From Eledone cirrhosa (Eukaryota), in assembly GCA_964016885.1 (NCBI GenBank), contig OZ024742.1, positions 56,110,001 to 56,174,000 on the forward strand: a stretch of 64,000 nt of DNA, in the 5' to 3' direction. A program made the translations under genes and the position numbers. Under the pieces are notes generated by a model that saw only the letters and a program-made list of their open reading frames with translations, did not search any database and was not told the origin of the DNA. Positions 8,750 through 54,780 of this stretch are shown in pieces (the first letter of the stretch is position 1; each line of letters opens with the position of its first letter).

Positions 8750-9526
8750 ATAAGTATGTACACGTACATACATATATGTATACAGACGTACAGTAGTATG
8801 TATATATATATACATACATGCACACATATATATATGTACGTATGGATTCACCGAACATTTATTATAATGCTCGGTGTGTTTGTAAACAAACATCCCGTAT
8901 TAAGCCGTAGTGTCCAGCAACCATCGTTGCTCGTTTCTTCAACACTGACAAAGGAACGCTGTACTAGTTTCGAGCTTATTAGCTATCGTCAGCAACGTAT
9001 ACCTTCCTGCCAGATTGTTGAACGTATATACTTACCTTATGCATATTAACATGTTTTCCTTATGCATATTAACATTTACCTTATGCATATTAACATTTTT
9101 TCCGTTTATCGTTTTCGGTGCACCCGGCCGATTAACCCATTCGATATGCAAATTGGGCTTCTCAGCTGTTAATATGCATAGGGTAAGTATATACGTTCAA
9201 CAATCTGGCAAGAAGGTATACGTTGCTGACGATAGCTAATAAGCTTGAAACTAGTACAGCGTTCCTTTGTCAGTGTTGAACAAACGAGCAACGATGGTTG
9301 CTGGACACTACGACTTAATACGGGATGTTTGTTTACAAACACACCGAGCATTATAATAAATGTTCGGTGAATCCATACATACATATATATATGTGTGCAT
9401 GTATGTATATATATATACATACTACTGTACGTCGGTATACATATATGAACGTACGTGTACATACTTATATTTAATTAACAGCCGTACTAAGAGTGGGAAA
9501 TGAAATTTCCTTTCATTTTTTCCGTT
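8750..9526. mobile_element. Family F non-coding HHR element, fold-back copy
   Basis: About 8750-9050 is the reverse complement of about 9168-9470. Same family at 33300-33940 and 53950-54780. Confidence 0.85.
9220..9262 (+). ncRNA. Minimal type I hammerhead ribozyme (family F)
   Basis: acgttg-CTGACGA-tAGCT aata AGCTt-GAAA-ctaGTA-cagcgt. Other copies at 8956-8998(-), 33532-33574(-), 54106-54148(+) and about 54529-54572(+, GAAA mutated to TAAA). Confidence 0.85.
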
Positions 9527-10458
9527 TATATATATATATATATTTATATATATATACACATATATATATATTTATATATATATATATATATATATATATA
9601 TATATATATATATATATATATATATATATATATATATATATATATATATATATATACATATATATATGTATATATACACATATATATATGTATATATACA
9701 CATATATATATACATATATATATATATATATATTTATATATATATACACATATTTATATATATATATATATATATATATATATATATATATATATATATA
9801 TATACATATATATATATATATTTATATATATATATATATAAAACATATTTATATATATATATAAACATATATATATTTTTATATATATATATGTATATAT
9901 ATATATATATGTATATATATATATATATTTTATCTTTTCACTTTTTTTGTGTTTTTGTTTTGATACGCACTCTTTTTCCTGCTACTAATTTGGCTCTCAC
10001 TCTTTTAAGTTGTGAATTAGACTGGTTATCTACGCACGTGGCTGACACATTTCAGCTCGCTACAATAGATGATCGCATTTAAAGTCCGTTAAAGGTTCTT
10101 GGCACTACCATTGTTACCATCGCTTTCCTCTAGCCATGGGTCTTGGAGGCATGAACCGAATGCTACCATTCTATTTTATATCAATATGAACTGATATTTC
10201 TAATAGCCATCTTTTTACCCCTTGATAATTTGTGTGTGCGACACGTTGGCTGAGGGCTTCTGACAGGAACTAAAAGATTGATTCTTTTTAGCTTCCCATC
10301 CCCAAGTAAAATTTGTAAATCAGTGGCTAGTTGAGAGATAGAGTCCTATTGGTTGCCAGTTGCTATTCGCTTTACCGTGTGAGTTGTCACAAACAGTTAT
10401 GACCGGCATGGGCCGGTGTTTGGATTCTGTCGATCGATTAGTTATCGATTAGGCGATA

Positions 10459-10568
10459 CCCGCTGATGAAGCCGCATAAGCCGGTTGTGCATTGTTGCAT
10501 AATATGTTGAGACAGACGGTGCGGTGTACCTTACTGCTGCATTAGTGCAGCAGAAACTCGAGTCCGGG
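10459..10568 (+). ncRNA. Type I hammerhead ribozyme with long stem II insertion (family G)
   Basis: cccg-CTGATGA-agccgca...tgcagca-GAAA-ctcgaGTC-cggg, within a non-coding insert at about 9930-10715 that ends in (TA)n. Confidence 0.75.
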
Positions 10569-11036
10569 AACCTTATAGACACTCGTTTTACGTGTGTTGT
10601 GTTGAGGCAAATGACTATGTGTATACTCTGATAATGTATCTTACATTGCCCATTGAGTGCGCTGAGATACAACCGGTACTGACATTGATAAATATGGTGG
10701 GCCCGTCAACCCTTATTATATACACGTATATATATTTATATATATATATATATATATATATATATATATATATATATATATATATATATATATATATACA
10801 CATATATATATATATATATATATATATATATATATATATATATATATATATATATATATATATATATATATATATATATATATATATATATATATATATA
10901 TATATATATATATATATACACATATATATATATATATATATATATATATATATATATATATATATATATATATATATATATATATATATATGTATATATA
11001 TATATATATATACACATATATATACACATATATATA

Positions 11037-11549
11037 TTACAAAAAAGATAGATGGCATGACAGGCGACCACTATTGGGGTCGATTAGAAAAGCTTAAACT
11101 TTATTCTCTTCAACGTCGCCGTGAGTGCTACATTATCTGTATGATGTGGAAAATATTCCATCAGCTTAGCCCAAATGATGTTGGCATCATCTTTAGTGTA
11201 CACCCAAGGCTTGGGCCCCGTGCTATCCGCCCAAGACAAAAATCTCACTCGCATCACATAACAACAATACGGCACAATTATTTCACCTCAATGGTTCCTG
11301 CACTTTTACACAAAAACACATCAAAGCAGAGACAGACCCCATCAAGTTCAAGAGGTCTTTGGATAAATTCCTTCAAGAAATCCCGGATAAGCCTCCTACA
11401 CCCGGATATGCCTCCGTAAACAATAACTCTCTTCTCGAGTAGGCCATGGTGCCCAAACACTGATTTATAAGACTTCGCCAGGTGGTGCTATTAAGTTAGA
11501 CATGGCCTGAGCCAATACTGACCGAAACCTATCAAAGTTATCAAACTTA
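11037..11549 (+). mobile_element. CR1/L2-group LINE 3' fragment
   Basis: [25 protein letters not shown], then a 3' tail of atcaaagtt/atcaaactt repeats. Same family as 16964-18050 and 46330-47275. Confidence 0.85.
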
Positions 11550-11629
11550 CATATATTTATATATATATATATATATATATATATATATATATATATATAT
11601 ATATATATATATATATACATATATATATT

Positions 11630-52161: not shown

Positions 52162-52329
52162 CCGTATGTTTAGCATTTTTATATAGAAACGCACACTGAA
52201 TGTATTTGCACTTTTTCTATTTAAACTGAGTAGAAATGTTTTAAAATGTGTACAATACGACCAATTTCTACCCAGAATTTCAGTTCAAATGTGTTCGTAT
52301 TATACGATATTATACGCTATAACCTACGG
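52162..52329. mobile_element. Possible pogo/Tigger-like MITE remnant
   Basis: TA-ccgtatgtttagc ... gctataacctacgg-TA form an imperfect TIR. Confidence 0.3.
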
Positions 52330-52689
52330 TAGGTATAATTGGTTTCTAAGTTTGTCAAAAATATTTTATGTTACACTAAAACGCAAAGTTGTGAGAACGC
52401 CGGATTGAATACTTGGCAGAATTCAGCATCCTTTAGTTCAAATCATACTACGTTTAGCTTCACCATTGATCCATTTGGGATTTTTTTTTAAAGTACCAGT
52501 CCGGCACTGGTGTTGATTCTTTCTGTGTCTCTTTCTTACCTCCTCATCATTATTCTCTCATCTGCTCTGGAAGAAATTGGCTGTTTATTGAGCGGAAATA
52601 TTTTGGAGTTTGGAGTACCCTAGACGCGCCGTATGTAACTCCATCAAGAGTTACGGATTCATACATATATCACATTATATTATTCTTTA

Positions 52690-52805
52690 GAGTTCAAATC
52701 CCGCCGAGGTTAACTTTGCCTCTCATCCATACGGGGTCGATAAAATAATGTACCAATAATACACTGGGATAATTGCTGGCCTTGTACCAAAAGTAGAAAC
52801 AATTA
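52690..52805 (+). mobile_element. tRNA-derived SINE, 5'-truncated
   Basis: B box gagttcaaatcc, conserved body and tagaaacaatt tail. An older copy lies at about 52410-52510. Confidence 0.8.
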
Positions 52806-53949
52806 TATTATTCTTTAGAAACAATGGAAATTAAGATGCAACCAACATTATGAGCTGTAGGGTTTCAGCTCATCATTTTCTCTTATTCATATTCCTTTTT
52901 TCATTTCAAATATATTTGCAATGTTTATGCAACGTGAACAGGAGATAACATTGTATTTTGAAGTTGTATTGATATAAATGTGACACGAACTTAATAATAT
53001 ATATACAGAAAACAGAAAAAATCATTGTGTGCGGGAATACTGTAATTATGATAAGGAGGAAATATTTAGTTAAGAAAAAATAGAAAAAAAAATAAACAAG
53101 ATGAATTGAAATGATAAAATTGTGCTTCAATGTTTCATATTTAAGGAAACAGTTTATTTTAATATGTGTACCTTGATTTTAGGGTAAAGCATTTATATAT
53201 GTATATAAACAAGATATATATACATATATATATATAATATATATATATATATATATATATATATATATATATATATATATATATATATATATATACAAGT
53301 TAATATAAATTAATATATTTGATAAACACAAATACCAACATATCCGTGTTTGTATTGTAAACGACTAAAGTTAGCTAGATTGAAAAATACTAATTATAAT
53401 AATACAGTTTGCCTGTCTCGATTTAAAATAATAAATCAATAAAAACTTTAGTCGTTTACAATACAAAGACGGATATGTTGATATTTGTGTTTATCAAATA
53501 TATTAATTTATGTTAACTTGTATTACACGGCTCGGAAATACTTCTTTCTTTGAGCTATTTCATTGTAAAGGACTGCCTGAGGTTTGAACTCATTATTAAT
53601 AGTATATATATATATATATATATATATATATATATATATATATATATATATATATATATATATATATATATATATACATACATATATATATATCCATATA
53701 TATATATATATATAAATACATATATATGCATATATACGCACACACACATATATATATATACAAAGATCGGAATTATAATGTACATATATAATGTATATAT
53801 ATATATATATATATATATATATATATATATATATATATATATATATATATATATAATGTACATATATAATGTATATATACATGTATATATATATATATAT
53901 ATATATATATATATATATATATATATATATATATATATATATATATATA

Positions 53950-54780
53950 TTAGCTATCGTCACCAACGTATACCTTCCTGCCAGATTGTTGAACGCATAT
54001 ACTAGATTGTTGAACGATTAACCCACTCGATATTCAAATTGGGCTACTCAGCCGTTAATATGCATAAGGTAAGTATATACGTTCAACAATCTGGCAGGAA
54101 GGTATACGTTGCTGACGATAGCTAATAAGCTTGAAACTAGTACAGCGTTCCTTTGTCAGTGTTGAACAAACGAGCAACGATGGTTGCTAGACACTACGTC
54201 TTAATACGGGATGTTTTTTTTACAAACACACCGAGCATTATAATAAATGTTCGGTGAATCCATACGTTCATATATATATGTGTGCATGTAGGTGTATATA
54301 TATATACATACTACTGTACGTGTGTATACATATATGTATGTACGTGTACATACTTATATTTAAGTAACAGCCGTACTAAGAGTGGGAAATGAAATTTCGT
54401 TTCATTTTTTCCGTTTATCGTTTTCGGTGCACCCGGCCGATTAACCCACTCGATATGCAAATTGTGCTACTCAGCCGTTAATATGCATAAGGTAAGTATA
54501 TACGTTCAACAATCTGGCAGGAAGGTATACGTTGCTGACGATAGCTAATAAGCTTTAAACTAGTACAGGCGTTCCTTTGTCAGTTTTGAACAAACGAACA
54601 ACGATGGTTGCTAGACACTACGGCTTAATACGGGATGTTTGTTTACAAACACACCGAGCATTATAATAAATGTCCGGTGAATCCATACGTACATATATAT
54701 ATGTGTTCATGTATGTGTATATATATACATACTATTGTACGTCTGTATACATATATGTATGTACGTGTGCATTCTTATAT
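53950..54780 (+). mobile_element. Family F retrozyme-like tandem, 423-bp period, short 5' inversion
   Basis: HHR cores at 54112 and 54535. 53950-54000 is an inverted fragment. Flanked by (TA)n. Confidence 0.88.

Follow-up and report, generated by a model that had tools for sequence, protein, structure and literature searches.

Two groups of described elements come close to the repeat treated here, family F of Eledone cirrhosa, which was found in a 64,000-nucleotide stretch of contig OZ024742.1 (assembly GCA_964016885.1, positions 56,110,001 to 56,174,000 of the forward strand; the whole of this stretch is hereafter called the window). The first are the metazoan non-LTR (long terminal repeat) retrozymes, short AT-rich and non-coding tandem units with one type I hammerhead ribozyme each, which occur as anything from monomers to long multimers (PMC7229834), in thousands of copies and together with Penelope-like elements (PLEs) (PMC7229834; 10.64898/2026.07.22.740005). 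Mobilisation of retrozymes by PLEs has been proposed from shared ribozymes, co-occurrence and similarity to pseudo-LTRs (pLTRs), with the mechanism called unresolved (PMC7229834; 10.64898/2026.07.22.740005). The second are the PLEs that possess an endonuclease (EN+ PLEs). Their insertions have (TA)n targets and show partial tandems, a truncated copy in inverted orientation and, at one end, a tail of 30-40 bp (PMC8557442). A purified PLE protein, which is predicted to be dimeric, was seen in vitro to cut the two strands of AT-rich DNA and to extend each of them; reverse transcription begins internally, at two sites that delimit the genomic tail, with no difference in start site between the strands (PMC11167929). 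How animal retrozymes integrate, and how the tails and inversions of PLEs originate, are stated as open questions in these papers.

Family F has a unit of 423 bp, with 37% G+C and no coding capacity. Known here from DNA sequence alone, it shows every feature of the metazoan non-LTR retrozymes that can be looked for in this way: the short AT-rich non-coding tandem unit, the single type I hammerhead, the range from monomers to long multimers (PMC7229834), the thousands of copies and the co-occurrence with PLEs (PMC7229834; 10.64898/2026.07.22.740005). The unit is slightly longer than the 170-400 nt quoted for metazoan retrozymes (PMC7229834). No LTR-type body lies between the ribozymes, as the units abut head to tail; a primer-binding site and a polypurine tract were not searched for separately. 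The target-site duplication of metazoan non-LTR retrozymes is longer than 4 bp when present; the ends of family F lie in (TA)n. With the EN+ PLEs, family F shares the partial tandems, the inverted 5'-truncated copy, the tail at one end and the (TA)n targets (PMC8557442), as well as two reverse transcriptase (RT) start sites downstream of a hammerhead and the extension of both strands (PMC11167929). Unlike them, it has no open reading frame (ORF) for RT and a GIY-YIG endonuclease.

I consider it very probable that family F is a high-copy non-LTR retrozyme, copied in trans by a PLE enzyme that primes from both ends of a DNA break. PLE enzymes are the likely copyists because the mirror-image insertions of the repeat almost always end at two different fixed sites, as do those of a coding PLE of the same genome. 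The class of element is already known, and the weight of the present observations lies in this end rule and in its coding-PLE control. Fixed paired ends and head-to-head insertions are not described for metazoan retrozymes in the available text of PMC7229834 and 10.64898/2026.07.22.740005, nor is a strict pairing of one site per arm stated for EN+ PLEs in that of PMC8557442 and PMC11167929. A literature search, incomplete in itself, returned no paper that treats a cephalopod retrozyme, family F or the pairing of retrozyme ends; such structures could be shown in figures or supplements of the cited papers.

Copies of family F and their two fixed ends

Across the 3.0 Gb genome, the best matches to the unit are spread over many contigs. 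An exact 35-nt ribozyme pattern occurs 9,326 times (a count of units, not of loci) and its reversed control not once. Elsewhere in the genome, consecutive exact matches lie 420-430 bp apart, in arrays of 2 to 24 or more units that abut head to tail; none of the three loci in the window has two consecutive intact cores. The genome-wide survey proposed with the original prediction, which had been made from the letters of the window, has been run and gives thousands of copies on many contigs, neither confined to this region nor always part of a longer coding element. The same prediction called the family actively dispersed, which is supported in part: some loci elsewhere (L248, L175) have arms and units without a single difference, but the copies in the window are older (the arms of locus 1 are 96.7% alike and the units of locus 3 94.3%). 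One array (L099, G000:C28:116222500-116232400) fills the fetched stretch with at least 24 units, 9-38 differences apart, in what looks like satellite-like growth. A relaxed ribozyme pattern gives 9,472 matches, and only a sister family appears among the matches listed (100 of 9,472). This sister family (L057:3390-3930; L251-L280) has a non-coding unit of 466-469 bp with a similar tail hairpin and one fold-back, and its ribozyme is homologous, with a G-C closed helix II and a GUU cut triplet.

On the ribozyme strand, copies end 3' at unit position 348 (site A) or 404 (site B), 56 nt apart and 220 and 276 nt downstream of the predicted cut, and continue into (TA)n; TA microhomology blurs both positions. 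Exact junctions of the B end with TA number 3,783 and those of the A end 1,570, with 0 in the controls. The 3' flanks are mostly (TA)n, both in loci chosen by their ribozyme and on partner arms that were not selected, and the copies show no poly(A) at either end. The 5' ends are scattered over the whole unit, with a median arm of 388 nt and 67 of 157 arms longer than one unit, in a survey that omitted arms below 85% identity or at the edge of a locus. A pile-up of 5' ends at unit positions 90-105, considered in loci chosen without regard to the ribozyme, was not significant (8 of 130, p = 0.17).

The two sites are used as a pair. Loci chosen by one 3' end (120 loci, L131-L250) comprise 69 distinct fold-backs and 48 single-arm calls, some of the latter being mis-parsed fold-backs. 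Among the fold-backs, 46 have one A and one B end, 1 has two A ends, 14 have a non-standard partner end and 8 run off the fetched stretch; wherever both ends are fixed, A is thus paired with B in 46 of 47 cases (p = 7e-13 against an even split). In a sample chosen by the ribozyme, with looser end windows (84 loci, 80 taken in list order and four arrays, L097-L100, added by hand), 31 of 40 head-to-head clusters are A+B, none has the same end twice, and 9 have one other end. The two samples overlap; six overlapping loci were dropped from the ribozyme-chosen one, in which L097 is mis-parsed.

At the inversion junctions the arms mostly meet with 0-5 bases of overlap or a short filler, in a survey of junctions and stops whose looser de-duplication counts 71 fold-backs rather than the 69 of the end rule. 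The two arms of one insertion tend to share minority variants, and therefore derive from the same template or source; in this comparison 22 of 48 fold-backs lacked 60 shared positions, and L247 was entered twice. The tandem-plus-inversion signature of PLEs, which the original prediction had read from the window, is supported by the 3' ends fixed in (TA)n, by the variable and often inverted 5' ends, and by the presence of the same rule in a coding PLE.

Fold-backs might also be produced by the enzyme of a LINE (long interspersed nuclear element), either through L1-type twin priming on one linear RNA or through snap-back of the cDNA. Remains of such an element lie in the window, at 46463-47297, which I take from its motif to be a LINE-type RT fragment, and the small overlaps at the inversion junctions would be in keeping with it. 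L1 twin priming yields two segments that do not overlap on the single transcript from which they come, with one fixed end only. In the present fold-backs the same unit sequence is covered by each arm, the outer ends are both fixed and different, and neither carries a poly(A) tail, all of which makes this origin extremely improbable. Spread at the DNA level, in which a satellite or foldback DNA is duplicated and recombines in (TA)n and carries the ribozyme motif along as a passenger, would account for the long heterogeneous array on contig C28 (L099) and for a part of L100 that looks DNA-amplified, and TA runs are unstable. However, such processes predict neither the polarised ends, nor the one-of-each rule, nor the match to a coding PLE, and the median arm is 388 nt; I regard this explanation as highly improbable, the end rule refuting it as the main route.

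Coding Penelope-like elements and the search for a partner

A near-complete coding PLE lies in the window itself (Table 1). It ends at 59864 and 60043, two positions 179 nt apart and both in (TA)n, and has many copies in the genome, with 93-97% identity and open frames of up to 727 aa. In this family, two different ends are paired in 11 of 21 loci, and no same-end pair is seen; the other 10 loci have no fold-back with two intact outer ends, or are complex. The core-pattern search of the window found no canonical hammerhead core in this element. In a second coding family, too, there are two end sites, which lie downstream of a hammerhead-like motif; of 30 loci, 10 use the one and 10 the other.

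It could be supposed that the family F unit is itself the pLTR of a coding PLE, and that its copies are 5'-truncated insertions of that element, since the ends, the tail, the inversions and the target are all PLE-like, and Xenopus retrozymes resemble pLTRs (preprint 10.64898/2026.07.22.740005). What lies upstream of a unit is however another unit, and in no case an ORF on the sense strand; more than one unit is spanned by 67 of 157 arms, and arrays reach at least 24. PLE or LINE protein hits occur in the flanks of 17 of 90 loci, only one of which (L037/L038) abuts coding sequence, on the opposite strand, and a PLE protein is hit in 2 of 46 single-arm 5' flanks. An ORF with RT and GIY-YIG is absent from the family F copies sampled (the unit frames, the flanks of the 90 loci and the 46 single-arm 5' flanks). 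This explanation is therefore very unlikely and, as far as the sample goes, largely refuted; a few copies may have a coding parent in their ancestry.

The non-autonomous elements of Chlamys, such as MRC1, offer a further comparison: like family F, they are non-coding dependants of PLEs, with pLTRs and multi-copy head-to-tail insertions (PMC8557442). MRC1-type elements share 3' sequence with an autonomous family (PMC8557442), whereas no such partner was found for family F. In two loci (L037:1232-2457 and L241:1-1550), a family F arm meets, head to head at its 5' end, part of the endonuclease region of a truncated PLE, and short microhomology is present where they join. These are possibly chimeras of two RNAs, which would name the partner, or else chance insertions beside abundant PLE remains.

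Predicted ribozyme, probable template and proposed mechanism

The unit bears what its sequence predicts to be a self-cleaving type I hammerhead. Helix I consists of six pairs, a three-base bulge and a further stem; helix II, of 3-4 bp, has a UAAUAA loop and begins at its base with a U-U pair, and is followed by GAAA; and helix III is a single A-U pair closed by a palindromic CUAG loop. The cut after GUA at 54142, as given in the original prediction, is correctly placed for the core that starts at 54112. That prediction also assigned one minimal hammerhead to each unit. The motif is indeed present, but four of the five cores in the window are intact (+9226, -8992, -33568 and +54112), the fifth (54535) having a T at 54556 in place of the conserved G of GAAA. 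The label of a minimal PLE-type hammerhead, a form without the usual helix sizes and loop 1-loop 2 elements, is wrong, since an extended, bulged helix I and a six-base loop II are kept across the families.

In an ungapped alignment of 12 family F and 8 sister-family copies the core is invariant, pairing is kept in 93% of cells (33-48% in slid controls), and 8 of 20 pairs show two-sided changes, across two subfamilies and the sister family. Where the ribozyme played no part in the choice of loci, substitutions affect 1.6% of core positions against 3.5% elsewhere (241 copies; subfamily sites are counted in the latter rate), and the core is intact in 128 of the 152 copies that span it. That the core is invariant while the helices covary suggests that cleavage has mattered to the spread of the family. 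Axolotl ribozymes of the same build cleave well only as dimers (PMC7229834); by the description given there, the 1-bp helix III with a palindromic tetraloop is shared with Amex1, and the U-U pair at the base of helix II with Amex2. In Xenopus, 8 of 9 predicted elements failed to cleave (preprint 10.64898/2026.07.22.740005), and prediction alone is therefore insufficient for self-cleavage. A folding z-score of -6.45, inflated by TA palindromes, was not used as support, and the Rfam microRNA hits in the window are noise from the same kind of palindrome.

Reverse transcription appears to have run freely over the predicted cut site. Stops fall there in 4 of 138 passages, where 3.1% are expected, and no pile-up of ends is present; indels open near it at 0 of 1,506 aligned positions, against 129 of 26,175 elsewhere. 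Such free and scarless passage implies that the template was uncut or re-ligated, and excludes cut linear monomers, or scar-leaving jumps between them, as the usual template. Successive units are near-identical in young arms (L248, with 0 differences in 640 positions, and L175, L181, L245 and L142), and alternating two-unit patterns are seen separately in L097 and L100, with 10-24 differences between them, and again in L163. On these grounds, a small circle was probably the main template, with an uncut multimer as the alternative.

If the template were a linear, uncut multimeric transcript, inserted by a PLE enzyme in the same way, the ribozyme and circles would have no part in copying. I judge this alternative the less probable, but by no means negligible. 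It would equally leave neither stop nor scar at the cut site; long arrays (L098-L100) are available as sources; in L218 the arms are identical and the neighbouring units different; and mutating the ribozyme left insertion in vitro unimpaired (PMC11167929). Against it stands the core, which stays invariant across the subfamilies and the sister family while the helices covary. In addition, the near-identical multi-unit arms (L248, L181, L245, L142) and the independent two-unit alternations of L097, L100 and L163 are most simply obtained from small circles, and related animal repeats have been found as circles (PMC7229834).

The following sequence of events could then account for the insertions. 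Family F loci would be transcribed on the ribozyme strand, and the ribozyme, probably dimeric through its palindromic CUAG loop, would cut the multimers into monomers and dimers that are ligated to circles. A PLE protein with RT and GIY-YIG domains, probably a dimer, would cut both strands in (TA)n; of the two DNA ends, one would prime at site A and its counterpart at site B, in both cases where a short UAU matches the primer. The start sites of family F do carry this match to a (TA)n primer, whereas the PAc start is not homologous to the cut DNA (PMC11167929). From there, each of the two cDNAs would extend upstream over a random length, in many cases beyond one unit. Joined 5' to 5', with overlap or filler of a few bases, they would give a fold-back; the loss of one of them would leave a single arm. 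Some arrays may expand later at the DNA level.

More tentatively, and with somewhat less than even confidence, I propose that the enzyme is an asymmetric PLE dimer, in which two reverse transcriptases would travel round one small ribozyme-made RNA circle, each break end being bound to its own start site, and that the insertions are a genome-scale record of this process. If true, it would explain the tail and the inversion of PLEs, would show the proposed life cycle of retrozymes, and would suggest that arms of a retrozyme and of a coding PLE can even be united by one enzyme, as in L037 and L241. A short element free of coding sequence, with two mapped start sites and a near-strict rule of one per arm that a coding PLE of this genome shares, provides a 420-nt substrate and sharp predictions for a test in vitro.

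Several observations speak against the account given above. The A+A fold-back, L187, breaks the end rule, and the end-chosen loci that support it are confined to the first 111 Mb of contig C1. The tail of family F measures 56 nt, compared with 30-40 for EN+ PLEs (PMC8557442). No coding partner was found, as neither 30 RT loci nor the 3' regions of 30 endonuclease loci have sequence in common with the unit, in a search that discounted independent family F insertions and compared two coding families among tens of thousands of PLE candidates. With respect to the ribozyme, the covariation represents about three lineages, and the count of doubly changed pairs is reached by 168 of 500 shuffles. Rfam gives no hammerhead family among the window matches listed (150 of 183), and none in a focused scan with 3 hits, so that the core motif and the covariation are the basis for calling the ribozyme. 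With respect to the circle, differences at the same position and between neighbouring units are equal overall (14 fold-backs, p = 0.24), as a homogeneous linear multimer also predicts, and L218 (1 of 201 against 13 of 360) fits a linear or dimeric template. In L100, six units alternate perfectly and the last three differ by 2-5 bases, a pattern that points to later expansion at the DNA level or to smoothing in the assembly. Finally, in the single PLE system studied in vitro, insertion did not depend on ribozyme cleavage (PMC11167929).

Scars of RNA editing were also considered. A>G changes (109 of 18,452) exceed T>C changes (71 of 18,092) by a ratio of 1.5, with an uncorrected p of 0.007; A>C is equally skewed (1.55), six pairs were tested and the copies are not independent, and this weak signal was not used.

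The window loci and neighbouring features

A BLAST search of the 423-bp unit against the window returned exactly three loci, apart from simple TA matches. As the original prediction had it, they belong to one family, and comprise a fold-back (locus 1, 8745-9529), a diverged copy (locus 2, 33321-33935) and a tandem (locus 3, 53948-54783). Their parts are collected in Table 1.

Table 1. Family F copies, predicted ribozyme cores and the coding PLE in the window. Positions are those of the window; unit positions refer to the reference unit of locus 3.
Feature	Position	Strand	Description
Locus 1, left arm	8745-9050	-	unit 40-348; 3' end at fixed site A, into (TA)n
Locus 1, left arm core	starts 8992	-	predicted cut after 8962; intact
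Locus 1, head-to-head junction	9051-9093		43 extra bases within a threefold 21-nt duplication of arm sequence (9035-9100)
Locus 1, right arm	9094-9529	+	unit 389-423, then 1-404; 3' end at fixed site B, into (TA)n
Locus 1, right arm core	starts 9226	+	predicted cut after 9256; intact
Locus 2, older subfamily	33321-33935	-	about 1.4 units: 168-423, then 6-342; one orientation
Locus 2, core	starts 33568	-	predicted cut after 33538; intact; helix I U-G changed to A-U
Locus 3, inverted stub	53948-54003	-	unit 58-113, 56 nt; (TA)n reached before any fixed site
Locus 3, full unit	54015-54437	+	423 bp, reference unit, no ORF
Type I hammerhead motif (predicted)	54091-54159	+	core CUGACGA 54112-54118; predicted cut after GUA 54142
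Locus 3, tail	54363-54418	+	56 nt between fixed ends A (unit 348) and B (unit 404); short hairpin inside
Locus 3, second unit	54438-54783	+	unit 1-348; 3' end at site A, in (TA)n
Coding PLE	55865-60043		RT then GIY-YIG, with frame breaks, near-complete; direct pLTR, inverted arm

Locus 3 is a tandem of about 1.8 units with the predicted period of 423, together with an inverted stub, which is the remnant of a second arm. Locus 2 has 82-85% identity to the other loci; its 3' end is site A in (TA)n, its 5' end joins unrelated DNA, and its second partial unit begins downstream of the ribozyme. The 460-bp period proposed for it is not borne out, as four anchors give 436-444, or about 440. The absence of an ORF, also claimed at the outset, holds in the tripled unit, where the longest stop-free frame is 58 aa and the longest ORF from an ATG 30 aa. 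Just upstream of the ribozyme, the young subfamily has AG/GTAAGT at 54066-54074, presumably a consensus-like 5' splice donor, which the older subfamily lacks. Immediately past the (TA)n of locus 2 comes a further abundant repeat (33070-33280), which contains a long inverted repeat and also occurs beside many of the fetched loci.

Additional hammerhead-core motifs are found in the window at 12752, 14433, 16157, 19845, 20511 and 26426, at 36220 and 36951, and at 2203, 38177, 60334 and 19216, in several repeated families that are unrelated in sequence to family F. Decayed PLE-like RT or endonuclease fragments lie at 27215-30362, 44382-44876, 47300-49300 (with an inverted arm) and 61836-63015. For six PLE fragments, which I assign to PLEs on the assumption that their RT and GIY-YIG motifs are correctly recognised, Pfam returned 0 families. 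A short interspersed repeat (55990-56160, and L282-L292) is found repeatedly within PLE arms, in many cases at AT-rich ATTATT sites, and a 318-bp unit unfolds into a tandem of 2.6 copies with 96% matches at 21049-21861.

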